Of a stretch of 44,398 nucleotides of DNA, positions 14,599 to 43,874 are shown piece by piece; the first letter of the stretch is position 1; every line of letters starts with the position of its first letter. Location: IMG/VR virus record IMGVR_UViG_3300045988_090220, positions 1 to 44,398 of that record. One strand, written 5' to 3'. The position numbers were made by a program, and so were the translations under genes. The notes beneath the pieces are model-generated. The model did not search any database. It saw only the letters and a list, made by a program, of their open reading frames with translations, and was not told the DNA's origin. Source of the stretch: a virus.

Positions 14599-14627
14599 AT
14601 TGTATCAAACTCTCCAATGCTTGTCAA
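14599..14627 (-). promoter_or_regulatory. Consensus sigma70-type promoter upstream of the portal gene
   Basis: Minus strand TTGACA-17 nt-TACAAT, about 40 nt upstream of the portal start. A TGGTATAAT extended -10 also lies at about 14641-14649. Confidence 0.5.
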
Positions 14628-14673
14628 TAGTAAACTCTTAATTATACCATTCGCCACAACGAAAGTAAAGGAC

Positions 14674-16326
14674 TCAAATAGGCCGTTTGAAAACTTCCAC
14701 CTTGCCCCCGGACAGCATACGGATTTCGTTCTCCAACAGGGAGAGAGAGTCAGGAGCGTCATCGTGCGGAACCTTACCGGAGCGGGTGTAGGTGGTCACT
14801 TCCTTCATGAAATTCCAATACTGACTGCCCCGCTTGTAGGTGGAGGGGTGCTTGAAGTAGAAGTTCTTCTTGATGTTGTCGGAAGCGAACTCAATACGGG
14901 TCTGCTTGTTGGATATCGTGCGCTTCGTGCGGATACCAACAGAGTACCCACGCTCCCGAATGATCTGGTCAACATCTCTGGCATAATATTGACCGGCATT
15001 GTTGGACTCAAAGACAGCGGAAGCCGCCTTGTTCTCGATCAGGCACTTGGCACATTCCGGCTTCGTTACCTCAGCGGGAGAGTCATCAAAGACCACATCA
15101 ACGATATACACAGCATTGCCGTATATCATCGCCACCGGCATAGAGGTCGAGTCAGAGCCGCTTTCCGCCGTATCGCCAACGGCGATGATGGTGTCCGGGT
15201 CACGGTCTTTCGGCAGCTCAAAGAAGTAGTTCAGCTCGTCCTTGCCGAACAGCAGACCCTTCGCTTCAAAGGGCTGTTGCTGGAACTCACTCTCAAACTG
15301 CTCTGCGCTCAGAAGCTCCCGCTGCTCCCGGAAGTAGGCGGTAGTAAAGACCTTCTTGCCCTCCCGCTCGTATTCATAATTGCTCTCGTCCGTCACGAGA
15401 TCGAGGGCGGGTATCTCAATCGCTCTCCAAGCCCAGCCCTCCCGCTGTGCGTGTTCCTGCACACGACCGATGGGGTCATACAGGGAATAGCGAGTGCCGG
15501 TGAAAACCATCGGCGTACCTTCAATGGCACGACCCATAATATCGCCGGAGATCACTTCCCACTTGTCATCAAGCCGCTGGCGGTTCTTCGCCTCCTCACG
15601 ACCCTCCACACAGTCATCGAGGTAGAGGACATTGGTGGCTTCGGACAAGCCCACCTGTCGAGCGTCAATGGAACGACACATGATGGTGGGGAAACGGGAC
15701 TTGCTTTTCAGGTTCGCCGTCTTCGTGTCGGCATTGGTCTGTACCAGCCGTGCGTCCGGGAACACATCGTAGAACAGGTACTCGTTGGGAACTGTCAGGT
15801 ATTCCAGACAACCATTGTAGAAGCTCTTTACAAGGTCATCGCCTGTCCCTTCCATCAGAGTCGAGCGGTCAGGGAACTTGCCAGAGATCATATTCACAAA
15901 ATTGATACCCGTTTGAGACTTTCCCGCTCGTTTCGGCATGGAGATCGTCAAAAGACGCAGCTTCCCGTCCAGAACATCTTGAAACCCCTGTACCATCGGC
16001 CTGAGATAGTGCTTACGGGGAGCATAGAACCGCTTTTCCGGCTTGCGGTCGAGTTCGATATAAGTCATGAAGGAGTCAAAATCATGGGGCGCTTCAAAGA
16101 GAAGACACCGCCGCCACTGTTCATAGAACTTCGCCCCGCCGCCACGGACTACCTGATCTGCGGAGAGTGCCAACAACTTCTTGTTCATCTTATGTGCCGC
16201 CGAGAAATCCTCGGTTTCCCACTCCCGGCACAAAGAAAAGAGATCGCTGTACGCCCCGTTATCTCCCGGTCGGCGGTCGATCACGGCTCGAATAGAGCCG
16301 GAGAGTTTTTCATAATTCATGTGCAT
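14674..16326 (-). CDS. terL: Terminase large subunit
   Basis: 550 aa. Walker A-like MPKRAGKSQTG and a C-terminal nuclease-type region. Followed by the portal gene. The second ATG (16320) has better RBS spacing. Confidence 0.9.
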   Translation of the reverse strand: MHMNYEKLSGSIRAVIDRRPGDNGAYSDLFSLCREWETEDFSAAHKMNKKLLALSADQVVRGGGAKFYEQWRRCLLFEAPHDFDSFMTYIELDRKPEKRFYAPRKHYLRPMVQGFQDVLDGKLRLLTISMPKRAGKSQTGINFVNMISGKFPDRSTLMEGTGDDLVKSFYNGCLEYLTVPNEYLFYDVFPDARLVQTNADTKTANLKSKSRFPTIMCRSIDARQVGLSEATNVLYLDDCVEGREEAKNRQRLDDKWEVISGDIMGRAIEGTPMVFTGTRYSLYDPIGRVQEHAQREGWAWRAIEIPALDLVTDESNYEYEREGKKVFTTAYFREQRELLSAEQFESEFQQQPFEAKGLLFGKDELNYFFELPKDRDPDTIIAVGDTAESGSDSTSMPVAMIYGNAVYIVDVVFDDSPAEVTKPECAKCLIENKAASAVFESNNAGQYYARDVDQIIRERGYSVGIRTKRTISNKQTRIEFASDNIKKNFYFKHPSTYKRGSQYWNFMKEVTTYTRSGKVPHDDAPDSLSLLENEIRMLSGGKVEVFKRPI

Positions 16327-16338
16327 TTCCTTTCCAAT

Positions 16339-16377
16339 AAAAAACGAGCTACCCGTGTATTTCTACACAGATAGCCC
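16339..16377 (-). terminator. Terminator-like hairpin just upstream of terL
   Basis: Minus strand imperfect stem GGGCTATCTGTGTA-GAAA-TACACGGGTAGCTC followed by GTTTTTT. Preceded by a conserved 27-nt box (16372-16398). Confidence 0.45.
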
Positions 16378-16483
16378 GTCATGGCTGTCACTCCCGCCCT
16401 TGCAGAAGCCTTATTTATTTAACTTCAACAACTCCGCCAGTACAAAAATCGGCAGGAGAAGTATTAACAAAACGATATACATA

Positions 16484-17329
16484 TCACTCCACCACCAATT
16501 CACAGTCAATCCAGCTACCAGCACTCAAACATTCACCAACAAAGGTAATGGTATCTCCGACCTTGACTGTTTTAAGATTTTCTTCTTGCTCTTTCTCGAA
16601 CTCGGCGTAGAAAATAACGATTGTATTTCCTACCGTCTTCTCCAAGGTCAAGGTGGCTCCGCCTGTCAGATTAAACAATCCATCATTGGTCATGCCATCA
16701 ATTTTAGCAGTCACTCGATAGCGATTGTTTTTATACAGGTCATCGGCAACCAGTTCGTTTTCCTTATATGCCTTATAGATTTCCTCGAAAGTAGCAGTTC
16801 CTACCGTATCTTCTTCCTTCTCAGTTTCCTGTTTAGGGACAGTTTCGGACTTCTCGCTATTTTCTTGATTATCATTGGACGTTGTTTCTTTGGAGGGTTC
16901 GTTTAATTTTTTGAGAACTTCGGTTTCCTCGTAACCGCACCGGCTGCACCTTGTTACAAATTCACCATCACTCTCGGAGGTAGGTTTAATCCGGCTAACC
17001 TCCCGCATATCGTGTCCTAATCGTTTAATCGTCTCAGTCGTATCCCGGCCACACAAGTCACAATGATATTTTGTATATCCATCCTCTGTACAACTTGCTT
17101 CTTTCGTCTCAACGAGCCTATTCTCATGCTTGCACCATGTGGCTGGGGAGGTAAGTACACCGACTGTAATAACCGCCGCAAAGGAAATCCAAAACCACTT
17201 GAACCACTTCCATTTCGGCTTCTTTCTAATCTTTCGGATAATCCAAATCACCAAGAGAACGGGGGCGGCTATCAATTCGAGGGTGGCTATAAAGGAACAA
17301 ATGTTAGAAATTATTTGCATTTCAACCAA
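16484..17329 (-). CDS. Membrane protein with Zn-ribbon repeats and a C-terminal OB-fold (tRNA_anti-like) domain
   Basis: 281 aa. Two N-terminal hydrophobic helices, CxxxxxxxxC..CDLCG and CSRCG motifs, an acidic linker, and a C-terminus (YKENELVADDLYKNNRYRVTAKIDG...VKVGDTITFVGEC) that resembles the tRNA_anti-like OB family. Confidence 0.6.
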   Translation of the reverse strand: MVEMQIISNICSFIATLELIAAPVLLVIWIIRKIRKKPKWKWFKWFWISFAAVITVGVLTSPATWCKHENRLVETKEASCTEDGYTKYHCDLCGRDTTETIKRLGHDMREVSRIKPTSESDGEFVTRCSRCGYEETEVLKKLNEPSKETTSNDNQENSEKSETVPKQETEKEEDTVGTATFEEIYKAYKENELVADDLYKNNRYRVTAKIDGMTNDGLFNLTGGATLTLEKTVGNTIVIFYAEFEKEQEENLKTVKVGDTITFVGECLSAGSWIDCELVVE

Positions 17330-17942
17330 CCTTTCTTACTCGATCATACCATGTAGACCGACTAATGCCGAGTTCTCGACAACAGTCCGCTACGGTAATA
17401 AGACCGTCTTTTTGTTTTTGAGCGAGTTTTTCAAACTGCTCGTCATCAATCTCGGAAGCGGGTCTGCCGAACCCTCTGCCAGTCTTCACCGACACCCGCT
17501 TGCCATCGACAATCGGCATGGCGGCGATACCCTCAGCCTGCCGCTGCTTGGTCTTCTTACGCTCCTGCTCGGCAACAGCGCCAAGGACTTCAATCAGAAT
17601 GTTGTTGACCATTTCCAGCACCCATGTCTGGTCTTTGAAGTCAATCAGCGTGGTCGGAATGTCGAGGATACGGACGATCACACCCTTCTGCTTGAACCAT
17701 TCCAGTTCTCGCTTCATTTCGTCCTTGTTGCGCCCAAAGCGGTCGAACTCCTTGACGATGACTTCATCACCTTCCCGCACAATGGCCTTCAAAGCATTGT
17801 ACTGAGGACGGTCGAAGCTGCTTCCCGTGATCTTGTCGCAGTACACATTCTCGTCAGGAATATCGAACTTCTCACGGGCGACCTTGAGTTGCCGAGCAAG
17901 GTTCTGTTCCTTACTGGACACACGACCAAGGAAGTATTTCAT
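17322..17942 (-). CDS. Small serine recombinase (resolvase/invertase family)
   Basis: 206 aa. GRVSSKEQ catalytic-Ser motif, DRFGRN, AVAEQERKKTKQRQ and a C-terminal HTH (ELGISRSTWYDRV). Confidence 0.9.
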   Translation of the reverse strand: MKYFLGRVSSKEQNLARQLKVAREKFDIPDENVYCDKITGSSFDRPQYNALKAIVREGDEVIVKEFDRFGRNKDEMKRELEWFKQKGVIVRILDIPTTLIDFKDQTWVLEMVNNILIEVLGAVAEQERKKTKQRQAEGIAAMPIVDGKRVSVKTGRGFGRPASEIDDEQFEKLAQKQKDGLITVADCCRELGISRSTWYDRVRKVG

Positions 17943-17945
17943 GGT

Positions 17946-18179
17946 TCACTCCACCTCGTATCCACCGTCCGGCAGACGGGTATTGGCAGGAACAACGATG
18001 ACCTTGTAATCCATCGCTCTGAGCATAGTGGTCAGCAGGGACACGGGAATGTCCTTGACATTTTTGTTGTTCAAGCGTTCCCAAATGGTAGCGTTAGATA
18101 CCTTGAGCCTTTTTGCGAGTTCAGCGTTGGAAAGAGACTTGGAAGTCATGATCTCTTTCAGGATTTCTCGACCTCTCAT
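17946..18179 (-). CDS. XRE-type HTH DNA-binding protein
   Basis: Start MRGREILKEIM at 18179, set by the GAGGTG RBS and by the consensus promoter lying over the longer ORF start. HTH is LSNAELAKRLKVSNATIWERL. Confidence 0.75.
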   Translation of the reverse strand: MRGREILKEIMTSKSLSNAELAKRLKVSNATIWERLNNKNVKDIPVSLLTTMLRAMDYKVIVVPANTRLPDGGYEVE

Positions 18180-18197
18180 GTTTATCACCTCGGCTTT

Positions 18198-18226
18198 ATT
18201 ATACATATCAAGCGTTTTATTGTCAA
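18198..18226 (-). promoter_or_regulatory. Perfect consensus sigma70 promoter for the HTH-resolvase-membrane protein operon
   Basis: Minus strand TTGACA-17 nt-TATAAT. The spacer is made of the repeated motif CAATAAAACGCTTGA. Confidence 0.7.
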
Positions 18227-18237
18227 GCGTTTTCTTG
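18208..18237. promoter_or_regulatory. Two tandem copies of 15-mer TCAAGCGTTTT(A/C)TTG (operator- or res-like)
   Basis: Copies at 18208-18222 and 18223-18237. The same motif occurs four times at 20353-20438. Confidence 0.6.
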
Positions 18238-18521
18238 AAATTGATCTTTTTATTTTTTGCGGGTATTTTTCAGCTTACCCCGCCCTCGCTGCCGCTGGTA
18301 TATCCCCCGCCCCCGTCACCCATTCACGCCGCTCAGATCAGGCCGGAAAAGCGCAAAAAACAGGGCAGCTCTGCACCGCCCTAACACCCCCGCATTATAA
18401 CACCGCCGCAAACCCCATTAGAACGCCATACACGGCGTTTAGTATAGGCGGTAGTACCAGTATACCACCAAACCGCAAAAGCCCGTAAAACGCCCTTAAA
18501 ACGCCTTTACGGATAAAGCAT

Positions 18522-18554
18522 AAAAACAACCGCCCCGGAATAGCACCGGGGCGG
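18522..18554 (-). terminator. Rho-independent terminator of the five-gene operon
   Basis: Minus strand CCGCCCCGG-TGCTATT-CCGGGGCGG followed by TTGTTTTT, about 95 nt downstream of the stop at 18648. Confidence 0.75.
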
Positions 18555-18647
18555 CGTTCACTTATTCAATTTCAGTATTTCAATCAGGATTTGAAACGGC
18601 AGCAAAAGCAACAAAAGAATTAAATACATAAAAAAATATATCTCCTT

Positions 18648-18914
18648 TCAAGAAAATGTAAAGCGCCTTGTTTCCGTGGCTCTGGTGTACTGTGCTGCCA
18701 CTCCCGGCAACTCTCGCTTTAATGCCGTAGTATCAATGCGGGAGCTTGTAACGGCCTTATATGTGGCCTTGTGTTCCGTCCCTGTTAGCGTGTCCGTGTT
18801 CTGTTCCTGCATAATCTGCTTTAACTGGTCTTTCAGGCCGTCCACCGTGGCGGCAATCTCTTCACCCATGCGGATATACTCCGCAAGCTCTTTCATAATA
18901 CTATCAATATTCAT
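18648..18914 (-). CDS. Hypothetical protein (88 aa)
   Basis: AT-rich ORF. N-terminal coiled-coil-like helix, then KATYKAVTSSRIDTTALKRELPGVAAQYTRATETRRFTFS. No domain I can name. Confidence 0.65.
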   Translation of the reverse strand: MNIDSIMKELAEYIRMGEEIAATVDGLKDQLKQIMQEQNTDTLTGTEHKATYKAVTSSRIDTTALKRELPGVAAQYTRATETRRFTFS

Positions 18915-18926
18915 ATTGCACCCCCG

Positions 18927-19274
18927 TTAAAATACCGTATCAACAACGGTTAGAATTGTTACCCACAGATCAATATACTGTGTGCTGTATCCGGTATAAT
19001 CGCCCCTGTCAAACTCTGTTTTGCCCGTGATAACATAGCCAACTTGTTTTGCGCCCCCGTCTGATAGATCAACGAACATTTCCGACTTGTTTTTAATGGC
19101 ATTTTTGGAAATGGTGATACAGTACTTTTCTTTCACCCGTTCCCGGTAAATTTCAAGCGCATTTTCCACGCTATCCGCATCTATGCGCATATCCGAAACA
19201 ATGCCGCCGTCAATGTACCACTTTTTATTGTTGTATTCTTTCATTGTTGCCGTTGTTTTGAAAATGTAATTCAT
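18927..19274 (-). CDS. Hypothetical protein (115 aa)
   Basis: ORF in the tightly packed island operon. Confidence 0.65.
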   Translation of the reverse strand: MNYIFKTTATMKEYNNKKWYIDGGIVSDMRIDADSVENALEIYRERVKEKYCITISKNAIKNKSEMFVDLSDGGAKQVGYVITGKTEFDRGDYTGYSTQYIDLWVTILTVVDTVF

Positions 19275-19276
19275 AA

Positions 19277-19525
19277 TTAAACCCCCATTCTAATACATTC
19301 ATCAAGTGGAATTTTATACCCATGCACCCGGAAAAATGCGCTATCTTTCCCGTTTGCGGGATAGTAGATTTTGCACCGGTGGAACGCTTTACCGCCGCCC
19401 CACGCCCCGGAAACACAATAAACATAATCGTTAACGCCGTATTCAATGCCTTTAATTTCAAGGCCATTTAAGCCGCTATAATATGCAATGCTTTCCCGGC
19501 TTTCGCAATATTCCCGTTTATTCAT
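19277..19525 (-). CDS. Hypothetical protein (82 aa)
   Basis: ORF in the tightly packed island operon. Confidence 0.6.
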   Translation of the reverse strand: MNKREYCESRESIAYYSGLNGLEIKGIEYGVNDYVYCVSGAWGGGKAFHRCKIYYPANGKDSAFFRVHGYKIPLDECIRMGV

Positions 19526-19862
19526 GATTGCAAACCCCCTTTATAAAATCCCTTGCAAGGCTTTTCAGGCTTTCCCGCTGCTGTTCATAGGAAAGGCTAT
19601 AATCATAGCGGATTTTTTCGGCCTGTTCTTCCACGGCTTTCACCTGTTCATAAGTGGGGCGGATATTTCCGAAAGGGGCATACCCGGTTACAATGGCAAC
19701 CCCGCCGCCCATATCGTAAATATCAGCCGCCCACCCTTCCCGGCGTTGTGTATAGGCAACCGGGCTTTCATAATTCAAAAGATACTGTAAACTACAATAG
19801 GAAACGCAAATAATTGTGGAATAACCGGCCTTTACTGCCTTTTGCGTTGTCTTGAATTTCAT
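19518..19862 (-). CDS. Hypothetical protein (about 114 aa)
   Basis: ATG at 19862 (MKFKTTQKAVKAGY) with an AAAGGGGTG RBS. The longer form starts at a TTG inside the upstream stop region. Confidence 0.6.
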   Translation of the reverse strand: MKFKTTQKAVKAGYSTIICVSYCSLQYLLNYESPVAYTQRREGWAADIYDMGGGVAIVTGYAPFGNIRPTYEQVKAVEEQAEKIRYDYSLSYEQQRESLKSLARDFIKGVCNHE

Positions 19863-19876
19863 GTGATACACCCCTT

Positions 19877-20230
19877 TCAATAATTCACGCTGTTAGCTGC
19901 ACGGCGTTTATACATGGCTTTCAAACTTTCGGCGGGGGTCATATCCGCCGCTTTCGGCTTTTCCATTTCTACCGGCTGCGTATCCCACCACGCTTTCCCG
20001 CCGCCGTTCATATCATAGAACGAAAGAAAACTATTCACATGGCGCATTGTAGTAGCAGAATAACCGCCCCACATACGAACGAACCGCCCCGCCGCCGTAA
20101 TACGGCAAACAAAAGTATTATAGGACTGTAAAACTTTTTCGCCGTTTTCCGTTTCAATGATTTTCGCCTTTCCGTAAAAACTTTTTGCTCGATCAGAACC
20201 GCAAACGGGTAAATCAAATATCTTTTTCAT
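19877..20230 (-). CDS. Hypothetical protein (117 aa)
   Basis: First gene of the island operon (MKKIFDLPVCGSDRAKSFYGKAKIIE...YSATTMRHVNSF). Confidence 0.65.
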   Translation of the reverse strand: MKKIFDLPVCGSDRAKSFYGKAKIIETENGEKVLQSYNTFVCRITAAGRFVRMWGGYSATTMRHVNSFLSFYDMNGGGKAWWDTQPVEMEKPKAADMTPAESLKAMYKRRAANSVNY

Positions 20231-20352
20231 AAAGTAATCAGCCTTTCATAATATATTCCATTCCGTTTTCCCATTTCGGCCTTGATACGCTGAAAGCCTA
20301 TTTCACCGGCCTACATGGGAAAATGTACGGGGATTTAATTTTCAAGGTGCAA

Positions 20353-20445
20353 TCAAGTGTTTTATTGATGGTTAGAGTATATCAAGCGTTTTATTGTTTG
20401 TCAAGCGTTTTATTGATATTTTATCAAGTTTTTTATTGACGCTTG
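20353..20445. promoter_or_regulatory. Four copies of TCAAG(C/T)(G/T)TTTTATTG plus one inverted half site
   Basis: Copies at 20353-20367, 20382-20396, 20401-20415 and 20424-20438. ACGCTTG (reverse complement of CAAGCGT) at 20439-20445. Confidence 0.6.
20376..20404 (-). promoter_or_regulatory. Consensus sigma70 promoter of the five-gene island operon
   Basis: Minus strand TTGACA-17 nt-TATACT. The spacer and -35 are built from the repeated 15-mer. Confidence 0.65.
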
Positions 20446-20619
20446 CAACCGTCTGAAAAACTACACTTTTTTGCACTATACATTATAAAGGGCAAAAACA
20501 CCGCCCCGATCAGGCCGGAACCCCGGCAACGCCCACGCCGCCGCGGTGGAACCCGCCGCCCCGATCAGGCCGGGAAAAGGAAAAGCCGCCGACCCCGTGA
20601 AGAGATCGGCAGCTCTGTC

Positions 20620-20774
20620 AAAGTCGCAGACCTTCGCCGGAAAGTCGCAAAGTCGCAAAGTCGTTCGGGCGAAAGTCGTGAAAGTCGCGGGATAGTTGCA
20701 AAGTCGCTCGGCATAGTCGTAAGCCATAGTCGCAAAAGTCGTGAAAGTCGCTCAGTCCTCCGGGTCATAGTCGC
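20620..20774. repeat. Array of 13 octamers (A/T)AAGTCG(C/T), read on the plus strand
   Basis: Copies start at 20620, 20641, 20649, 20657, 20672, 20681, 20692 (variant ATAGTTGC), 20700, 20713, 20726, 20735, 20744 and 20767. The array abuts the terS stop codon (20752-20754). Confidence 0.9.
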
Positions 20775-21321: not shown

Positions 21322-21348
21322 AGTCGTTTTCTCCTTTCAAAGTCGTCA

Positions 21349-21457
21349 AGGTGATAAAGGTGAGTAATCGGGTGCATTTTCCTATAACTATTTCTATATA
21401 CGCGCGTATAAGAGAGAGTTATAGGCATTTATGCCCGATTACTCACCTAACTCACCT
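21349..21457. repeat. Palindromic MITE-like element, copy A
   Basis: Left arm AGGTGATAAAGGTGAGTAATCGGG and right arm CCCGATTACTCACCTAACTCACCT. Inner inverted repeat CCTATAAC/GTTATAGG. Perfect 14-bp central palindrome TATACGCGCGTATA (21397-21410). Both arms are identical to copy B at 42960-43067. Confidence 0.9.
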
Positions 21458-21515
21458 AAAATACGAAAAACAATTTTTCAAAACACGCCAATTTGAAAAA
21501 AGTCTTTGCAGAAAC

Positions 21516-22078: not shown

Positions 22079-22238
22079 CTGCTCCCCCTTTGGATTGCTG
22101 TCCAAAAATATTGGCGGCGATAAAGGCTTGGGTCAAAGTCATTGCTTCCTTTGAGGATGCTCCTGCGTCAATGAGATTGCGGTAGAAATTCAAAGAAGTT
22201 TCAGCCAAAATACCAATGGCTTTTAGAAATTCATTCAT
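22065..22238 (-). CDS. Small hypothetical protein (57 aa)
   Basis: Hand-translated MNEFLKAIGILAETSLNFYRNLIDAGASSKEAMTLTQAFIAANIFGQQSKGGADDYE. ATGA overlap with the FolD-like stop. Fills an otherwise empty gap. Confidence 0.5.
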   Translation of the reverse strand: MNEFLKAIGILAETSLNFYRNLIDAGASSKEAMTLTQAFIAANIFGQQSKGGADDYE

Positions 22239-22891
22239 GCCCTATGCTCCTTTCTTGCAAAGCGGTTGAGCAACACGCTCACGGTGAGCTGACCAATCCT
22301 GTTCACATAGGGACAGTTGAAGAAGTCAGGGAGAGGGACGCTGTTGCCGAGGTCGATGACCAGATCACGGGTGTTGTAGGAAATGTCCTTCGTGATAGTC
22401 GGCGTGGCGTAGATCACCACATCACGGTTTATCGTGGCCTGTAAAAGACTCTTAGTCTTGGAGTGCGCCACCGTCACCGTTGCGTTGTTGAGAGTGAGGT
22501 ACTTTGCCAAGTTCTGAACGGCGTGACCCCGGCCTACGATGGTAATGTCCTTGGCGTGAACCAAGTCCAGCGCAAACAAAAGGGTTAAAGTCGCCTGAGA
22601 GACAGCCGACATTCCCGGCGAGTAGGAGTTATCAATGTCCACATCGGCGGAAATCTGAACGCTGGCAGGGACAGTCTCACCGTCCACGATGACTCCCTGA
22701 TAGGGAGGGGTGAAGTGAAAGGTGTGGTCGCACTCGATACCGAAAGCGTCTGCTTTGCGGTGGACTGCTTTCAGGAACACGCTGTCCTGAGAACCCAGCA
22801 GAAGCAGCTTTCCAGAAGTGGGGAGCAAGCTGGCAGTCTCTTTGTCCAGAGCGGCAGAGAGGTCGTGGATTTTTGCCATTACATCATTCAT
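22235..22891 (-). CDS. Divergent FolD-like methylene-THF dehydrogenase/cyclohydrolase
   Basis: Start MNDVMAKIHDL (22891). ITIVGRGHAVQNLAKYLTLNNATVTVAHSKTKSL...DVVIYATPT...VIDLG...IGQLTVSVLLNR aligns by eye with the FolD NAD(P)-binding domain (VVIGASNIVGRP..LLL..ATVTxxHxxT..ADLLIVAVG..VIDVG..VGPMTVA.L). Confidence 0.55.
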   Translation of the reverse strand: MNDVMAKIHDLSAALDKETASLLPTSGKLLLLGSQDSVFLKAVHRKADAFGIECDHTFHFTPPYQGVIVDGETVPASVQISADVDIDNSYSPGMSAVSQATLTLLFALDLVHAKDITIVGRGHAVQNLAKYLTLNNATVTVAHSKTKSLLQATINRDVVIYATPTITKDISYNTRDLVIDLGNSVPLPDFFNCPYVNRIGQLTVSVLLNRFARKEHRA

Positions 22892-23069
22892 AGTGCTTCT
22901 CCTTTCTTTCAAAGTCATGGAGGGAGATCATCTTCTCACGGGTGAGCTTGTCAACCACCCGCCCGATCTCCGAGTAGCCGCAAACCGCTGCCAGCCGTTC
23001 AAGGTTTCCCTTGGTCTGTGCCGTGACTACGATAGAAATACGGCGGAGGTTCTTTTTCTCAGTCTTCAT
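22884..23069 (-). CDS. Ribbon-helix-helix (CopG/Arc-like) small protein
   Basis: MKTEKKNLRRISIVVTAQTKGNLERLAAVCGYSEIGRVVDKLTREK, with a GGAGGA RBS. Only the last 61 codons of track ORF 22884-23327 are plausible. Confidence 0.5.
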   Translation of the reverse strand: MKTEKKNLRRISIVVTAQTKGNLERLAAVCGYSEIGRVVDKLTREKMISLHDFERKEKHYE

Positions 23070-34186: not shown

Positions 34187-36127
34187 TTATACCTCCAACA
34201 TTTCTAATAATTTTTTCTTGATGGAATTGACTCTGCGGGTATTTCGCTTGGGCGGCTTCTCTCCGAGGAAATCTCGGACATACTTTTTCGCCTGCCGGAT
34301 ATACCAGTCACGGTCAACCACATCAATCGTCAGGTGATTGTCGTTGTCTACGACACATTTTGCGGGGAGTCCGGCAATCTTGACGGGATTGCCAGTACCG
34401 AGGTGGATTTTGTAGAGGGTTCCGTACCGATGATCTTCCGTGGCATATACCCGGTTGACCTTCTGTACGACCTCCATCTGACCGTCTACCTCATGGAGAG
34501 CGTCACCGTATTTACTTCCGGCTTTAGCGACCAACTGGAAGTCCAGCAGGCGGTCGCAGCTCATGATAGTGTCTTCGACCGGGATACCGTAGGCCAGATA
34601 ATCCTTGACGGCCTTGGCAACCACGCAGGCGTTGTTGTTGATGTTGAACGCTCCTGCCGGGGCAATTCCACGAACGAGAACGCCGCCCTTGATTTTGGGG
34701 TCGCCCTCGAAGGGAACCTCGACATAATTGTTCACATCTTTCTGACAGATCATCTTGATAAGGTCTTCCTCTAACTCAAAGCCGGTTCTGTCCTGCCATT
34801 CCTGCGTGATTTCCTGATACACAGGAACATCGCAGTCATCAAGGCTGACCATGATACCATCGGTGTTGAGCTGAATGATCTTCAAGGTGGGGCAGTTCTG
34901 AACAAGATGTTCCGCCATTTCGAGCAACTGCAACTGGCCTGAGATACAGACCGAGCGCCCCATGAGCGGGTCATACAGGTCGTTGTAGCGGTTCAGCATG
35001 GCTCCGTAGGTGGTGTTCAGCACCAGCTTCAAGGCATTTGCCGTAGCCTTATCACCAGCCCTCTTTGCTTTAACACGCCGTTCAATGGTGGCGGCATACA
35101 CATCGGGAGAGGGAATGTTTCGGCTACAATAACCGTTCAAGGTCATCTGGTGTGGATAATAGCTTGCAACATCTTTGTTGCGGATAGAGCGGGTTTCCGT
35201 GGCTTCCTCTCGGTAGCATGGGATAGCTCCGTGAATACCACCGTAGGCGATGGTGCAAGGACAGCCGCCTACCATCAAATCGAGCTTTTCCTTGAACACC
35301 ACTTCGTCAGGAATACTCTTATCCTTCAACCGTTCAAAAAAGTCGAACACTTCCTGCGGAATGTACTGACGAAGCAATTTCGGCGGATACTGATATTCCC
35401 GCTCGTCATAGTGCGGCTTTTGCTCTGCGTCAAGGTAAGCAGCGGTCAGCTTGGCGTTGGTCATATAGAGGGCTTTTGCAGGATACAGCCCTTTTTCACG
35501 ACCCAGCGTGAGCTTGCTGGACAGATAGCCTTGACGAAGATCATCCAGCCTGTCGGTTGCGTCAACATCATGGCGGCAGTAGAACTCGACCTCTCGCTTC
35601 TCGTCCTCAGTCAGAGGGCGGTCGATGTTAAACGGAACGGTGGTTTCACGAATGTCCATTCCGAGGTGCGCTTCGATTGCTTTCAGGGACAACCCCATCT
35701 GGCAATCGTCCATCAGGTCATATTGATCGAAGAAAATTCTACAGTCACGGAGAGGGGCGTACTCCCAGCCCTCGTGACCGCCAACGATAATAAAATCGTT
35801 GACCGCCTTGATTTCCTCCGGCGTGAAACTTGAGAGAACCGCTTTTAGAATGAATTGGTCATAGTGCTTATTGTTGAACCCTGCCAACAGAGGTTCTTGA
35901 GTCATGAATTGTTCGACAGCTTCATTATCATTCCAAATCTCGGTGTATTCCTTCGTGATCTTGTTTTTGAAGGTAAAAAGCCAATCATAAGCAAACACCT
36001 CGCAGTCAAAAATGAAGGGTTCAAGGTTCAGCGGTATCACCTCCAAAGAGATTATCCAGATACCTTTCGGCAAGGACTTCTTGAACACCCTCCATGATGT
36101 AGAGCATACAAGGGAAAGCCATGCCAT
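34187..36127 (-). CDS. Family B DNA polymerase
   Basis: Exo I FDCEV, Exo II NKHYDQFIL, Exo III YCRHDVDAT, motif A DVASYYPH, motif B KLVLNTTYGAM, motif C LNTDGI. The start is uncertain (ATG 36127, TTG 36046 or GTG 36040), and every candidate overlaps the methyltransferase 3' end. Confidence 0.8.
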   Translation of the reverse strand: MAWLSLVCSTSWRVFKKSLPKGIWIISLEVIPLNLEPFIFDCEVFAYDWLFTFKNKITKEYTEIWNDNEAVEQFMTQEPLLAGFNNKHYDQFILKAVLSSFTPEEIKAVNDFIIVGGHEGWEYAPLRDCRIFFDQYDLMDDCQMGLSLKAIEAHLGMDIRETTVPFNIDRPLTEDEKREVEFYCRHDVDATDRLDDLRQGYLSSKLTLGREKGLYPAKALYMTNAKLTAAYLDAEQKPHYDEREYQYPPKLLRQYIPQEVFDFFERLKDKSIPDEVVFKEKLDLMVGGCPCTIAYGGIHGAIPCYREEATETRSIRNKDVASYYPHQMTLNGYCSRNIPSPDVYAATIERRVKAKRAGDKATANALKLVLNTTYGAMLNRYNDLYDPLMGRSVCISGQLQLLEMAEHLVQNCPTLKIIQLNTDGIMVSLDDCDVPVYQEITQEWQDRTGFELEEDLIKMICQKDVNNYVEVPFEGDPKIKGGVLVRGIAPAGAFNINNNACVVAKAVKDYLAYGIPVEDTIMSCDRLLDFQLVAKAGSKYGDALHEVDGQMEVVQKVNRVYATEDHRYGTLYKIHLGTGNPVKIAGLPAKCVVDNDNHLTIDVVDRDWYIRQAKKYVRDFLGEKPPKRNTRRVNSIKKKLLEMLEV

Positions 36128-37463
36128 TTCCCCACATCTTGTACTCCGCAGAGTCCTTATGAGGAACCAGCGCACACCAATCTTTCTCGAACCCTTGAAG
36201 GGAAGCACACTCGGTAGGGGTGAGCTTTCGAGCCAGATAAATGACTTCGCCGCTCTCCGTTTTTATGGGAAGGAAAAGGGTCTGGTCGTTGTTGCATGAG
36301 AGTGTTGCGCTCTTATCTTCCTGTATCAAAGCACCCTTCCCACCGCCCTCACAGCCAGAACGGATTTTCAGGGTGTACGGAATTGCTACAACGGGAGCTT
36401 GAAGCCCACTTGCGCCCGCTTTCAAAGTGGGCGAAACCTCTTTAGAAAAAGCGATACTTCCGGCCTTTTTACCAGCGCCGCCATTTGCGATTCCGACGTC
36501 AGCTTTGCACGGAACTAACACCAAATTCTCAGTCCCGCCTCCGTAATTACCACCAGTGGCTTTCGGAGTAACGGCTTGTTCCGTGGGTGCATATTCATCA
36601 TAGGAAGCCTGTCCGAAGCATGGAACAAGAACTAAAGGGACATTACCTCCCCCTGTTCCCATTCGTCCAGCGAGGGTTTGGACTGTGTTATCGGGTCTGA
36701 GGGACACTCGGCTATCTTGGGCGTGGTTTTCGACTGCATAAACACGATGGTGTTCAGCAGGGCTTGTTTCAGAAGCGGGTCTAAGGGCTTCCCACGTTCG
36801 CCTGACCTTCTTAAAATCCCTTCGCAAGCCCTCACGCTCAAATAATATCCGTCCGGCACATTGACCTCCAAGATCGAGGACAACGAAGACACGCTTGCGT
36901 CTTTGGGGAACTCCCCAACCTTGCGCATCAAGTCCTCTCCAAGCGATAGAGGAATGATCTCCCAAGACAAATCCGGTGTGTGGCCATTTTTGCCGTCCTT
37001 GCTTGTCTTCCGCATATCGAGGAACGCTATCGTTTCCCTCGCAGATTTTCCAGAGAGTTTCAATGACTGTTCGGAAGTCTTCTCCCTGTGTCGAGCTAAA
37101 AGCTCCATAAACATTTTCCCAAATGACGATTTGAGGAAATCTCCCATTGGTGGCACACCTCATTTCCTGAATAACTCGGATTGCTTCAAAGAATAGGGAA
37201 GACTCCTGACCAGCAAGACCCTTACCATTTCCAGCGATCGAGAGGTTTTGACACGGAGAGCCGAAGGTGATAACATCGACCGGCTCGATTTCTGCGCCGT
37301 TCATCTTGATAATATCGCCAAGGTGAACCATCTTGGGAAAACGGGACTGTGTGACGGCTTTCGGGAAAGGCTCGATCTCACTCGCCCATGCCGGGATAAT
37401 ACCGACCGCAGAAGCGGCAAGAGGACAAGTCCCGCTGCCATCAAACAGACTGCCTAACTTCAC
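36021..37463 (-). CDS. Orphan DNA (cytosine-5) methyltransferase
   Basis: Motif I LFDGSG, motif IV GSPCQ, motif VI ENV, C-terminal TPTECASLQGF and GNGMAFP. GTG start with a GGAGGT RBS and a GTGA overlap with the helicase stop. No adjacent restriction endonuclease gene. Confidence 0.85.
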   Translation of the reverse strand: MKLGSLFDGSGTCPLAASAVGIIPAWASEIEPFPKAVTQSRFPKMVHLGDIIKMNGAEIEPVDVITFGSPCQNLSIAGNGKGLAGQESSLFFEAIRVIQEMRCATNGRFPQIVIWENVYGAFSSTQGEDFRTVIETLWKICEGNDSVPRYAEDKQGRQKWPHTGFVLGDHSSIAWRGLDAQGWGVPQRRKRVFVVLDLGGQCAGRILFEREGLRRDFKKVRRTWEALRPASETSPAEHHRVYAVENHAQDSRVSLRPDNTVQTLAGRMGTGGGNVPLVLVPCFGQASYDEYAPTEQAVTPKATGGNYGGGTENLVLVPCKADVGIANGGAGKKAGSIAFSKEVSPTLKAGASGLQAPVVAIPYTLKIRSGCEGGGKGALIQEDKSATLSCNNDQTLFLPIKTESGEVIYLARKLTPTECASLQGFEKDWCALVPHKDSAEYKMWGNGMAFPCMLYIMEGVQEVLAERYLDNLFGGDTAEP

Positions 37464-40585: not shown

Positions 40586-40610
40586 TCTGTCTACCTCCTT
40601 TCGATGTTTT

Positions 40611-40629
40611 TGTAAGCAACAACAACAAG
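40611..40629. repeat. Left arm of the perfect 19-bp inverted repeat TGTAAGCAACAACAACAAG
   Basis: Exact reverse complement of 40748-40766. Confidence 0.9.
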
Positions 40630-40747: not shown

Positions 40748-40766
40748 CTTGTTGTTGTTGCTTACA
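40748..40766. repeat. Right arm of the 19-bp inverted repeat CTTGTTGTTGTTGCTTACA
   Basis: Exact reverse complement of 40611-40629. Confidence 0.9.
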
Positions 40767-40771
40767 ATGAG

Positions 40772-41279: not shown

Positions 41280-42932
41280 ATGAAAACGAAGAAACTGCCT
41301 ATCGACCTATCTATGCTTACCGTAGAGGAACAGCAACAGTTTGTTGATGACCCCACCACACTGGTGAGAGGTAACATCAATGTGACGCTCTATCTGCGGT
41401 TCAGTTCTGATCGGCAATCTGAGCAATCCATTGAAGGGCAACTTCGAGACTGTATTGCATATTGTAAACGGAAAGAATACCGCATTACCGCCATCTACAT
41501 TGACCGCGCAACGACCGCTCGAAAGGATATTGAGAAGCGTGTTCAGTTTCAGCAGATGATTTCCGACAGCAAACATGGTCTATGGGAATTGGTCATCGTA
41601 TGGAAACTCGACCGATTTGCCAGAAATAGAGAAGACAGCGCCGTATTTAAAATGCGGCTGCGGAAGAATGGTGTTCGGGTGGAATCTGCAACGGAAGCGA
41701 TTTCCAACACCCCGGAAGGTATCATCTTAGAGTCCGTGCTTGAAGGAATTGCCGAATATTATTCCGCAGACCTCAGCCAGAAAATTACCCGGGGCATGAG
41801 AGAGTCCGCCTTAAAAGGTCACTCCATCGGTGGTCATGTTCCCTTGGGGTATAAAATCGAGAATCATAGACTTATCATCAACTCCGCAACTGCCCTGATA
41901 GTACAGGAGGCATTTGAGCGCTACGCCAACGGAGAAAGTATTGCCGACATTTGCCGACTGTTTAATCTGAAAGGCTATCGTACCGCCAAAGGAGCCGAGT
42001 TTAACCGTAGTTCTTTCAAAGCCATGTTCCGAAACACTCGTTATATTGGAACCTACACTTACAAAGAAATCACTATGGAAAATACCATTCCGGCCATTAT
42101 CGACAAAGAACTATTCGACACGGTGCAGAAACGGCTTTCTAAGGTCGCAGAAGCCCCAGCAAGGGGTAAAGCTAAGGTAGATTACCTCTTGTCTGGAAAG
42201 CTGTTCTGCGGTCATTGTGGGGCGTCTATGAACGGTGAAAGTGGCACCAGTAAGACAGGAGCCGTTCATAATTATTATTCTTGTTACAGCCGGAAAAGAA
42301 AACAAGGCTGTGATAAGCGACCTATAAGGAAAGAATGGATTGAAACCATCGTCGCGCAGGACGCTTTAAATTTGTTGACCGATGACACTATTGAAGAACT
42401 GGCTGATATGGCATTGTTTCAATCCGAACAAGACATGAAAGAAACCACCCGTATTCCAGCATTAACCGCACAGCAAAAAGAAATCGAACAAAGTATATCT
42501 AACATCACCAAGGCTATCGAAAAGGGTGTAGCTTCTGATACTCTCCTAAATCGACTTACAGATTTAGAGAAAGAGAAAAAAGGTGTCCTAAAACAAATCA
42601 CAGAAGAAAATAAACTGTTCTATCAGATCGACCGAAAGCAAATTACAGGTTGGCTCTATCAATTCAAAAACGGCGATATATCCGATGATAGTTTCAAGCG
42701 GCAGCTCATAGATTTACTGGTAAACTCTGTAACGGTGTGGGACGAACCTGACGGATATAGAATTACTACTGCATATAATCTCACTACTTGTAAAACTAAA
42801 ACTTTTAGAGTGGATAGTAGTGGTCAGGAGTTCGGATTAGAGGGGTTATCGTCCACCATTGGACGCATATCCGAACCCTACGTTGTGTGGGGAACGGTGT
42901 TCGTTCAAACCAAAAGACACTCCTTACCTTAA
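41280..42932 (+). CDS. int: Large serine recombinase (phage integrase)
   Basis: 550 aa. Catalytic YLRFSSDRQ, DRFARN, a recombinase domain, a zinc ribbon (CGHCG...YYSCYSRKRKQGC) and a C-terminal coiled coil. Confidence 0.9.
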   Translation: MKTKKLPIDLSMLTVEEQQQFVDDPTTLVRGNINVTLYLRFSSDRQSEQSIEGQLRDCIAYCKRKEYRITAIYIDRATTARKDIEKRVQFQQMISDSKHGLWELVIVWKLDRFARNREDSAVFKMRLRKNGVRVESATEAISNTPEGIILESVLEGIAEYYSADLSQKITRGMRESALKGHSIGGHVPLGYKIENHRLIINSATALIVQEAFERYANGESIADICRLFNLKGYRTAKGAEFNRSSFKAMFRNTRYIGTYTYKEITMENTIPAIIDKELFDTVQKRLSKVAEAPARGKAKVDYLLSGKLFCGHCGASMNGESGTSKTGAVHNYYSCYSRKRKQGCDKRPIRKEWIETIVAQDALNLLTDDTIEELADMALFQSEQDMKETTRIPALTAQQKEIEQSISNITKAIEKGVASDTLLNRLTDLEKEKKGVLKQITEENKLFYQIDRKQITGWLYQFKNGDISDDSFKRQLIDLLVNSVTVWDEPDGYRITTAYNLTTCKTKTFRVDSSGQEFGLEGLSSTIGRISEPYVVWGTVFVQTKRHSLP

Positions 42933-42953: not shown

Positions 42954-42959
42954 ACATTT

Positions 42960-43067
42960 AGGTGATAAAGGTGAGTAATCGGGCGTTTTTCCTATAAACT
43001 CTTTATTATACGCGCATACTAAGAAGAAGTTATAGGGATTTTAACCCGATTACTCACCTAACTCACC
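42960..43067. repeat. Palindromic MITE-like element, copy B (attP candidate region)
   Basis: Same 24-bp arms as copy A (AGGTGATAAAGGTGAGTAATCGGG and CCCGATTACTCACCTAACTCACCT). Inner inverted repeat CCTATAA/GTTATAGG. Centre is TATACGCGCATA. The element abuts the endolysin stop codon. Confidence 0.9.
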
Positions 43068-43874
43068 TTACTGTCCCAGCAGCTTGCCCCACGTCCCCTT
43101 TCCGGCGATACCGTCCGCGCCCAGCCCGTACTTGGTCTGGAACTTCTTCAGCGCCGTCTCCGTGCCGCTGCCGAAGTCGCCGTCCGCACCGGCCGCGCCG
43201 CAGAAAAAGCCGTAGGCGATCAGCGCCGCTTGCAGGGTCTTCACGTCCGCACCCGCCATGCCGCGCTTGAGCATCCGCACCTGCATGGGGATGGTCACAT
43301 CCTGCGCCGCAGGTGCAGGCACCGGCACAGGCACGTTGGCGCTCTCCACAAAGGGTACGCCCAGCGCCGCACACAGCCCCTTGGCAATAGTCTCGCCGAT
43401 CAGGGTGGTATTGTCGATGATCCACTGGGCAACGCTGGGAACATCGTGGAAGTCCACCTCGATATACACCGTCGTAGCGGCAGGGTGCTTCACCTCGTAC
43501 AGCGCGGGATAGGCTCGAATCACGTCCGGCGCACCCGGCGTAATCGGGCCAAGTACATTCATTACGGCCTGACACGCCTTGTACCCTGCGCTGTTCCGGT
43601 CGCCGCTGTAACAGAACAGGTGCGTACCGCTGGCCTTGCCATTGCAGGCGTTGGAATGGATGGGGACGTGCAGGTCAGCCTTGAAGCGGTTGGACGCCGC
43701 CACACGGTTCTGCATGGTGTCGTACTGCCCCAGCATCACCTCCACACCGGAGCGCTCCAGAGCGGCCTTGCAAGCCTCTGCAATGCGCCCGCACTGGATG
43801 GCCTCGGTGGTGCCGCCCACCGCGTAGGTGTTCCTCCGCTGGTCGCTGGGGGACAGATACACCCGCTTAGCCAT
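43068..43874 (-). CDS. Endolysin: N-acetylmuramoyl-L-alanine amidase plus a PG_binding_1 domain
   Basis: Amidase_3-like N-terminal domain (VYLSPSDQ...LHVPIHSNACNGKASGTHLFCYS). C-terminal peptidoglycan-binding repeat (GADVKTLQAALIAYGF...DGDFGSGTETALKKFQTKYGLGADGIAGKGTW). Confidence 0.85.
   Translation of the reverse strand: MAKRVYLSPSDQRRNTYAVGGTTEAIQCGRIAEACKAALERSGVEVMLGQYDTMQNRVAASNRFKADLHVPIHSNACNGKASGTHLFCYSGDRNSAGYKACQAVMNVLGPITPGAPDVIRAYPALYEVKHPAATTVYIEVDFHDVPSVAQWIIDNTTLIGETIAKGLCAALGVPFVESANVPVPVPAPAAQDVTIPMQVRMLKRGMAGADVKTLQAALIAYGFFCGAAGADGDFGSGTETALKKFQTKYGLGADGIAGKGTWGKLLGQ

Follow-up and report, generated by a model that had tools for sequence, protein, structure and literature searches.

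Why do the two terminase genes of a temperate phage lie more than 4 kb apart, and what are the eight genes between them for? The question is raised by IMG/VR virus record IMGVR_UViG_3300045988_090220, whose 44,398 bp (hereafter the window, meaning the whole stretch of DNA that was analyzed) make up the entire viral contig, a circularly permuted temperate phage genome. An initial annotation had read the interval between the small (terS) and large (terL) terminase genes as a self-contained accessory island with consensus promoters and possibly an undescribed defense system. We present here a comparative analysis of this interval, according to which it is probably a lineage-wide hotspot for accessory genes beside the packaging genes, with its own regulatory circuit, and not a single inserted element. 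The operator/repressor regulation of the locus is the main new result.

A search of IMG/VR with the large terminase protein (TerL) returned 516 relatives, and the best 80 (terL 97 to 99% identical) were fetched; the 64 with both terS and terL, together with the window, form a close set of 65 loci. A scan of bacterial genomes found TerL relatives down to 51% identity and gave a distant set of 13 loci with both genes (terL 63 to 98% identical). The same scan identified the host lineage as Oscillospiraceae, with a 98% TerL match in a prophage of Dysosmobacter segnis BX15, a relative of module type C as defined below. Open reading frames (ORFs) of the 65 terS-terL intervals were clustered into families (c-numbers). 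Promoter sites were scored against the sigma-70 consensus (maximum, 12/12), with first-order Markov simulations as background. The phage lineage is common, since IMG/VR holds more than 500 near-identical TerL matches.

The separation of the two genes was confirmed at 4,425 bases, with both on the minus strand. That they are a normally adjacent pair split by a self-contained island was not borne out: terS adjoins terL in 0 of the 64 close and 0 of the 13 distant relatives, leaving no empty site in either set. The gap spans 2.9 to 5.3 kb in the 65 close loci and 2.8 to 7.6 kb in 13 of 13 distant ones. Its borders fall in sequence conserved across all relatives, and a repeat search of the window found no terminal inverted repeats, target-site duplication, or mobile-element ends around the 4.4 kb. 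The interval does have a lower GC content than the rest of the window (46.1% versus 51.5%), as the initial annotation had it, but the difference is modest and uneven (the resolvase gene has 51.4% GC). Nor are the eight genes a conserved packaging or structural block, as the full set recurs only in two other contigs (L003 and L116).

The 65 loci share a fixed order: terS, a CGACTTT array, promoter P2, cassette 1, a terminator and joint, promoter P1, a regulator/recombinase module, cargo, an 84-nt terminator region, and terL. Within this frame, between terS and terL genes that are 98 to 99% identical, gene arrangements differ widely. The modules are of three nonorthologous kinds. Type A (28 loci) has the helix-turn-helix (HTH) protein of the window and a resolvase of 206 or 213 aa; type B (10 loci) has an HTH protein 43% identical to it, often a Bro/Ant antirepressor, a second HTH protein, and a 194-aa resolvase; type C (27 loci) lacks an HTH gene and encodes a 256- to 273-aa recombinase that carries both a Resolvase and a Recombinase domain. 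Cassette 1 consists of u1a-u1b-u1c-u1d in some loci and is drawn from several unrelated sets (c18-c24, c18-c16-c32, and others) in the rest, and the cargo, one gene per locus and occasionally two, belongs to families c11, c13, c21, and c48. Combinations of cassette 1, module, and cargo are mixed though skewed, and cassette content can be wholly different between phages that are otherwise 98 to 99% identical. The intergenic joints are 88 to 98% identical across module types, and cargo breakpoints fall exactly at the overlapping recombinase stop and cargo start codons, with no shared core site. What had been called one hitchhiking cassette is thus made up of at least three segments; their assortment is largely independent, and conserved joints and gene boundaries are where they recombine. 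Judging from these breakpoints, the mosaicism is of the usual kind, produced by recombination at conserved linkers and gene boundaries and not by site-specific cassette capture. The description of the interval as promoter-gene(s)-terminator units with variable accessory content, set inside the packaging and late region, was borne out.

Distant relatives carry HicB/Panacea antitoxin-type, YjcQ, Bro-N, TM-Mrr (Mrr_cat) nuclease, and FtsK-like genes in the same place, which fits a hotspot for conflict genes. Five Lachnospiraceae-associated loci (L095 and L097 to L100) have a terS-side cassette on the opposite strand of the terS-terL gap, with a 242- to 244-aa FtsK/SpoIIIE-family ATPase gene beside c16, c18, and c24 homologues. 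A small HTH gene and a membrane cargo gene (in L098, one for a Bro/Ant-like protein) precede terL in these loci, and there is no recombinase.

Both near-consensus promoters of the initial annotation were recovered, P1 at 12/12 positions and P2 at 11/12 with a TG extension. Five sites of at least 11/12 occur in the 44.4-kb window, compared with a mean of 0.41 and a maximum of 2 in the simulations, and a promoter is found at the P1 position in every module type. Overlying both is a 16- to 19-nt repeat, TCAATAAAACGCTTGA, which occurs six times in the window (0.46 expected): four times at P2, twice at P1, and nowhere else. At P2, one copy is upstream of the -35 box, one overlaps it, one lies in the spacer, and one is just downstream of the -10 box, in the start region. 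The TTGA of the repeat plus CA forms TTGACA at each -35 box. These operators are 16-bp palindromes or pseudopalindromes that overlap the -35 box, spacer, and start region.

The type A motif is present at both promoters in 28 of 28 type A loci, whichever cassette lies between, and is essentially absent from the 37 type B and C loci, which have at most single chance-level matches to it. Types B, B′, B″, and C each have a motif of their own at both promoters, 2.1 kb apart: TCAAGTTAAAACTTGA in type B, AACACGAAAGCGTGTT in locus L011, AACGCGATAACGCGTT in locus L024, and CATTTAC-based repeats in type C. P1 and P2 therefore carry a set matched to the module type in all 65 loci, whatever lies between, and there is no unmatched operator/module combination among them. 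Homologous exchange should take place readily in the joint between cassette 1 and P1, so that mismatches would be expected; their absence from 65 loci argues that selection maintains the matched sets.

In types A and B, as in distant relatives, P1 is followed first by the gene for a small HTH protein (70 to 84 aa). In the window its start was corrected from 18206 to the ATG at 18179, preceded by the ribosome-binding site (RBS) GAGGTGA; the earlier ORF contained the -10 box. The product had been called XRE type, and it is indeed an HTH protein, but its best matches are of the winged-helix/AsnC type (HTH_24, 6e-7), with Xre-type HTH_3 at just 0.0055. Its helix-turn-helix segment differs wherever the operators differ. 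Given that the motif shared by P1 and P2 is particular to the module type in 65 of 65 loci, the 77-aa protein is very probably the type-specific repressor of the whole locus, acting at P1 and P2. With operators overlying them, P1 and P2 are probably repressed promoters and not constitutive ones; P1 would be autoregulated, and the four sites at P2 would shut it more tightly. Features of the locus are listed in Table 1.

Table 1. Positions in the window of features in and around the terS-terL interval
Feature	Position	Strand	Basis or description
terL, large terminase	14674..16326	-	PHROG 38 terminase large subunit, 2e-44
Terminator hairpin directly before terL RBS and start codon	16333..16380	-	17-pair stem and T-run
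Cargo: membrane-anchored Cys-rich OB-fold protein, 278-281 aa, Sie-like	16484..17329	-	
Small serine recombinase, resolvase type, 206 aa	17322..17942	-	PF00239, 8e-22
Small HTH regulator, 77 aa	17946..18179	-	HTH_24, 6e-7; start codon and RBS conserved
Promoter P1, TTGACA-17-TATAAT	18198..18226	-	12/12 match
Two type A operators at P1, overlapping -35 and in spacer	18208..18238	-	
Conserved noncoding joint upstream of P1: G-rich stretch, then A-tract GAAAAATACCCGCAAAAAATAAAAAG	18238..18314	-	
Optional ~160-nt insert with promoter-like site and terminator (18383..18361)	18361..18528	-	Some type A and B loci only
Intrinsic terminator ending cassette 1	18519..18555	-	10-pair stem, 9 GC pairs, T-run; conserved in relatives
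u1e, 88 aa	18648..18914	-	PHROG 6244, 8e-12, and C-terminal part of PHROG 434; unknown function
u1d, 115 aa	18927..19274	-	Weak matches only; PHROGs of unknown function
u1c, 82 aa	19277..19525	-	PHROG 17101, 2.8e-7, unknown function
u1b, 114 aa, orphan family	19518..19862	-	915 homologues, 0 with a Pfam domain
u1a, 117 aa, DUF8033 (PF26096)	19877..20230	-	Pfam on homologues and identical contig; PHROG 4264, 9e-18
Optional structured 5′ leader, P2 to first gene	20231..20352	-	~120 nt; minimum free energy -35.5 kcal/mol, z = -2.33
Four type A operators (TCAATAAAACGCTTGA-like 16-mers) at P2	20353..20439	-	
Promoter P2, TTGACA-17-TATACT with TG extension	20376..20404	-	11/12 match
D2 motif CCGGCCTGATCGGGGCGG, imperfect palindrome, two copies	20499..20584	-	Repeat search; third copy 18327-18357
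Terminator-like hairpin after terS	20582..20616	-	15-pair stem, then T-rich tail
~11 (G/A)CGACT(T/A)T heptamers, terS 3′ end (last codons) into intergenic region	20620..20774	-	
terS, small terminase, 189 aa	20752..21321	-	Pfam GP3_package, 5.6e-12; PHROG 606/309 terminase small subunit
Large serine integrase	41280-42932		
Endolysin	43068-43874		

The five small ORFs of cassette 1 were borne out at 117, 114 (120 from a TTG start), 82, 115, and 88 aa, and gene calls on an identical contig agree. An AlphaFold2 (AF2) model of u1a (predicted local distance difference test score [pLDDT], 83.5) matched DUF8033 phage proteins in BFVD and, weakly, a protein named TreP from Staphylococcus phage A3R; no fold match was found in the PDB. 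DUF8033 genes also occur in the early operon adjoining the repressor gene of an unrelated tyrosine-integrase phage. The u1b model had a pLDDT of 56 and was unusable for structure search. The u1e gene is present in 6 of 65 loci, mostly with c18/c16 cassettes, and so belongs with a different cassette type in relatives. Searches of the small proteins with NCBIfam and PADLOC returned nothing.

The cargo was correctly described as a membrane protein with an OB fold (tRNA_anti-like, 2.3e-6, above the Pfam cutoff; strong N-terminal transmembrane [TM] segment). It has CxxC pairs at residues 90/93 and 128/131 and matches PHROG 8545, "superinfection exclusion Sie-like," at 5.7e-10; the suggestion of an exclusion function stands to this extent, for the last gene of the interval. 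Close relatives encode a lipoprotein, a PH_gly_zipper protein, a 160-aa TM and OB protein, or the 281-aa version of the window, which is the 160-aa version with a Cys-rich insert and is found in 2 of 65 loci. Judging from the 160-aa relatives, which have a single TM segment, the OB domain would be expected on the outer side of the membrane.

These elements suggest the following sequence of events. The 77-aa HTH protein would bind as a dimer to type-specific 16-bp operators over the -35 box, spacer, and start of both host-type promoters and, since the operators cover both, would autoregulate its own operon and shut off P2. On entry of phage DNA into a naive cell, the two promoters would fire without a phage factor and give a burst of cassette 1 proteins, probably serving host takeover or anti-defense, and the repressor would then accumulate. 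In a lysogen, autoregulated P1 would maintain three products at a constant level: the repressor, the resolvase, and the membrane protein with its extracytoplasmic OB fold, the last being a candidate for superinfection exclusion or surface conversion. P2 would be off in the lysogen and also on an incoming phage of the same operator type, amounting to a second immunity, and the terminators would keep transcription from P1 and P2 out of terL.

Several points weigh against this account. The pairing of HTH protein and operator comes from co-variation, and type C loci have matched motifs at both promoters with no dedicated HTH gene; their operator binder may be the recombinase. The model gives the recombinase no necessary role, though every close relative has one. 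The promoter and terminator calls are consensus matches, and a near-consensus promoter pair before the portal gene, described below, means that such promoters may belong to the lytic program of the phage. The probable role of cassette 1 in host takeover or anti-defense is a guess from context, and PADLOC gave no meaningful match and no recognized system for the eight window proteins. The Sie label of the cargo is a PHROG annotation; in nr the protein is named "putative nucleic acid-binding lipoprotein," and homologues about 53% identical also occur in nonprophage chromosomal contexts, so the family is a general surface protein borrowed by the phage. Finally, many of the 64 close relatives come from the same metagenome project and are not independent samples.

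The noncoding DNA of the locus is conserved in several places. The CGACTTT array begins in the last codons of terS and holds 6 of the window's 7 exact copies of GCGACTTT, all on one strand; 6 to 10 CGACTTT copies lie within 240 nt of the terS stop codon in nearly all relatives, whatever the terS N-terminal variant. It is a candidate pac or TerS-binding site. The D2 motif is conserved in module types A, B, and C and not in distant relatives. The terminators reported at the ends of the two units were confirmed (18555..18529 and 16380..16343), and two more were found (20616..20582 and 18383..18361); the final 84 nt before terL are 90 to 100% conserved in 64 loci. The joint upstream of P1 is 88 to 98% identical across module types, with type-specific sequence starting immediately after it, and is recognizable in relatives with TerL only 65 to 68% identical, including some whose upstream genes run in the opposite direction. 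Its role could be that of an upstream promoter element or of a site bound by a protein. At least 14 relatives have the structured leader, in front of one or another of three different first genes and with weak covariation, and its 3′ half also precedes a DUF8033 gene in an unrelated phage (L113 to L115). It may be a cis-regulatory RNA. No Rfam match reached the gathering score, only chance-level matches appeared at an E value of <1, and the leader was likewise without a match; no tRNAs were found. A small RNA in the optional 160-nt insert was considered and rejected (fold z = -0.33).

Two further repeats lie outside the interval. A 113-nt imperfect palindrome is present just upstream of terS (21348-21460) and between the ends of the integrase and endolysin genes (42957-43069), with arms AGGTGA-N3-AGGTGAGTAATCGGG and centre TATACGCGCGTATA, so that the entire late region lies between its copies. 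At 99% identity across the 65 loci, the copy near terS is better conserved than terS itself. The palindrome could act in regulation or as a terminator, or could be a site related to att or pac. Between divergent cro-like and cI-like genes, a perfect 20-nt inverted repeat (40610-40629 and 40748-40767) flanks 118 nt containing a TTGACT-17-TATACT promoter; its halves are more likely operators than the ends of an invertible promoter. Elsewhere the window encodes a protein with the NAD(P)-binding domain of tetrahydrofolate dehydrogenase/cyclohydrolase (22235-22918) and a C-5 cytosine DNA methyltransferase (36021-37463).

The recombinase is the part of the locus that the regulatory model leaves idle. 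In all 65 loci, as in most distant relatives, the slot before the cargo is taken by a serine recombinase, which comes in three nonorthologous forms. The window's version had been described as a small serine resolvase with an intact catalytic motif, and its R-S...D-R..R residues do align with those of gamma-delta resolvase; from this alignment it appears catalytically competent. Its C-terminal HTH (HTH_7, 0.0057) also aligns with that of gamma-delta resolvase. Among proteins of solved structure, the recombinase is nearest to Sin/Tn552 Bin3 (3.6e-16) and gamma-delta resolvase, and the closest annotated homologues are Firmicutes plasmid resolvases, 38 to 45% identical. Type A and B resolvases have catalytic domains about 40% identical and an identical 42-residue DNA-binding domain. 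In a gut phage contig (GenBank accession number MT835537.1, positions 103-1509), a resolvase gene (product 33% identical) is directly followed by one for an OB-domain protein (57% identical), so the recombinase-then-OB-cargo adjacency recurs beyond the close relatives. Because the gene is near the candidate pac array and its nearest relatives are plasmid resolvases, we think its most likely role, with low confidence, is to resolve or circularize replicating or injected phage DNA and not to move cassettes.

Taken further, such a role could itself anchor the locus: on the model of phage P1 Cre/lox, a recombinase acting near pac would circularize terminally redundant headful DNA once it is injected or resolve the multimers of replication, and accessory genes would collect around it. 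The constancy of the gene in one slot despite three nonorthologous kinds, its intact catalytic residues and small-plasmid resolvase homologues, its distance of 2.7 to 3.3 kb from a conserved repeat array that could be pac, and a P1 that would express it immediately at DNA entry all agree with this. We nonetheless regard it as unlikely. Apart from the operators, no res-like candidate site that tracks recombinase type was found, and the operators were rejected as resolvase sites because they differ between types A and B, whose resolvases have the same DNA-binding domain. D2 occurs in phages whose recombinases are unrelated and is missing from distant relatives that have kept one; the 113-nt palindromes are likewise shared by phages with unrelated recombinases, the terS-proximal copy being 99% identical in all types, and show no inversion isomers. 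The 20-nt inverted repeat of the cI/cro-like switch was considered as an invertible promoter, and five aligned relatives are all collinear there. Deletion of cassette 1 by the resolvase would leave a P2/P1 hybrid junction, of which IMG/VR holds none, and the sole match in a search for intergenic inversions among relatives was a palindromic terminator. A Lachnospiraceae-associated subclade (terL 68% identical) has the HTH and cargo genes and no recombinase. Classical resolvases need supercoiled substrates with accessory sites, and linear injected DNA would fit them poorly. The pac assignment and the packaging direction are themselves putative.

A different possibility is that the interval supplies core early or middle lytic functions, with P1 and P2 as ordinary lytic promoters and the variation as nonorthologous replacement of an essential function. 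At 14599-14669, in the 113-nt terL-portal gap directly upstream of the portal gene, two sigma-70-type promoters near the consensus lie in tandem (TTTACT-17-TATAAT and TTGACA-17-TACAAT, both TG extended), which is unexpected within a late operon. With a comparable pair there, a late-region consensus promoter alone is no mark of a moron in this phage, and the proposal that consensus promoters imply expression from the prophage is weaker than claimed, the more so as operators overlie P1 and P2. A lytic role would also account for a cassette kept here in every relative, for the recurrence of the c16, c18, and c24/32 families in distant clades, for DUF8033 in the early operon of another phage, and for a promoter-proximal joint conserved down to 65% TerL identity. 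It is hard to square with cassette content that differs completely between 98 to 99% identical phages, with cargo made up of membrane and surface proteins or toxin-antitoxin- and nuclease-type genes, and with a repressor of the locus's own in several specificities, and we consider it improbable.

By analogy, the locus might also be seen as the phage counterpart of the "leading region" of plasmids, an idea that we offer as a long shot. Lying just downstream of pac, it would belong to the terminal redundancy of the first headfuls or adjoin it and would be among the first DNA in the cell, provided that packaging begins there and proceeds toward terL. Host RNA polymerase would start from P1 and P2 immediately, and the resulting burst of anti-defense proteins would limit itself. 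The recombinase of the same burst would circularize the terminally redundant genome, as Cre/lox does but with a resolvase, and resident prophages would silence the entry program of incoming relatives through their HTH/operator specificities, a second immunity.

The island first proposed, a single mobile cassette between normally adjacent terminase genes whose eight genes form an undescribed defense, anti-defense, or exclusion system, now seems very doubtful. Its promoter-terminator units, lower GC content, encoded recombinase, and the recurrence of the complete eight-gene arrangement in L003 and L116 speak for it. The terminase genes are adjacent in no relative, close or distant, however; cassette 1, module, and cargo recombine largely independently, with u1e in 6 and the 281-aa cargo in 2 of 65 loci; and there are no terminal repeats or target duplications. 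As for an undescribed defense system, no system-identifying PADLOC model matched, and the resolvase operon matches no described defense system. Literature searches on terS-terL splits containing a recombinase turned up no relevant work. An integron-like system, with the serine recombinase capturing cassettes and exchanging them at specific sites, is scarcely credible: the recombinase always adjoins exchangeable cargo and repeated promoter/operator modules flank cassette 1, but cargo junctions fall at overlapping stop and start codons with no shared core site, the same cassettes stand beside unrelated recombinases, IMG/VR contains no P2/P1 deletion hybrid, and no inverted segments were found among the relatives.

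The reading of the interval as a regulated accessory-gene hotspot has some practical consequences. Oscillospiraceae are abundant gut commensals whose phages are almost unstudied experimentally, and a hotspot with conserved borders is a ready list of candidate exclusion, defense, and anti-defense genes from phages of gut Clostridia, including orphan families that each have hundreds of homologues. Specificity diversification outside the main immunity region has a clean natural case in the matched repressor/operator sets. The ever-present serine recombinase beside the packaging genes is the most promising thread for follow-up.

Among the closest described systems is the secondary immunity region immI of Salmonella phage P22, in which the mnt-arc-ant repressors and antirepressor, with sieA alongside, lie between genes 16 and 9; the region is inside the late operon, is not expressed from it, and is highly variable (bioRxiv 10.1101/2020.10.05.325894). 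Both are variable regions in which small repressors (here a probable one) control strong promoters. P22 has an exclusion gene alongside, for which the Sie-like cargo is a candidate counterpart, and type B relatives of our locus have a Bro/Ant-type antirepressor under the small HTH. The position differs, terS-terL here and between injection and tail genes in P22. P22 Arc and Mnt are ribbon-helix-helix proteins, whereas the repressors here are HTH proteins. Pfam and PHROG searches found no antirepressor, a defining feature of immI, in the window, while the locus has a second regulated promoter with a small-protein cassette, several operator specificities, and a resident serine recombinase.

The morons of lambdoid phages, reportedly described by Juhala et al. 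in 2000 as promoter-gene-terminator units in late operons, share with these units their own promoter and terminator, a somewhat different base composition, and accessory content. Unlike morons, the units here have no "empty" relatives and are probably co-regulated by a locus-encoded repressor instead of being independent constitutive insertions. With no adjacent flanking genes in relatives and no antirepressor in the window, the locus is filed neither as a moron nor as immI. The recombinase has the domain order and catalytic residues of the Sin, beta, and gamma-delta resolvases of plasmids and transposons, but its gene follows a separate small HTH gene in the packaging region of a phage, and no res-like site was found. 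Phage P1 Cre/lox lies a few kb from pac; the resemblance is functional only, Cre being a tyrosine recombinase.

The hotspots of P2 and P4 phages are small loci beside cos with high gene turnover between conserved genes and with their own promoters (2022, PMC9122126). The locus resembles them in size (1 to 5 kb), in its turnover between two conserved genes, in having its own promoters, and in the toxin-antitoxin- and nuclease-type cargo of its distant relatives; with the CGACTTT array as a candidate pac, it may also adjoin a packaging signal. It differs from them in that PADLOC recognized no defense system in the window and in its recombinase and its dedicated repressor/operator circuit with several specificities. 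The terS-terL interval is thus a phage hotspot of a kind already described, though a well-built one, and does not amount to a new type of system.

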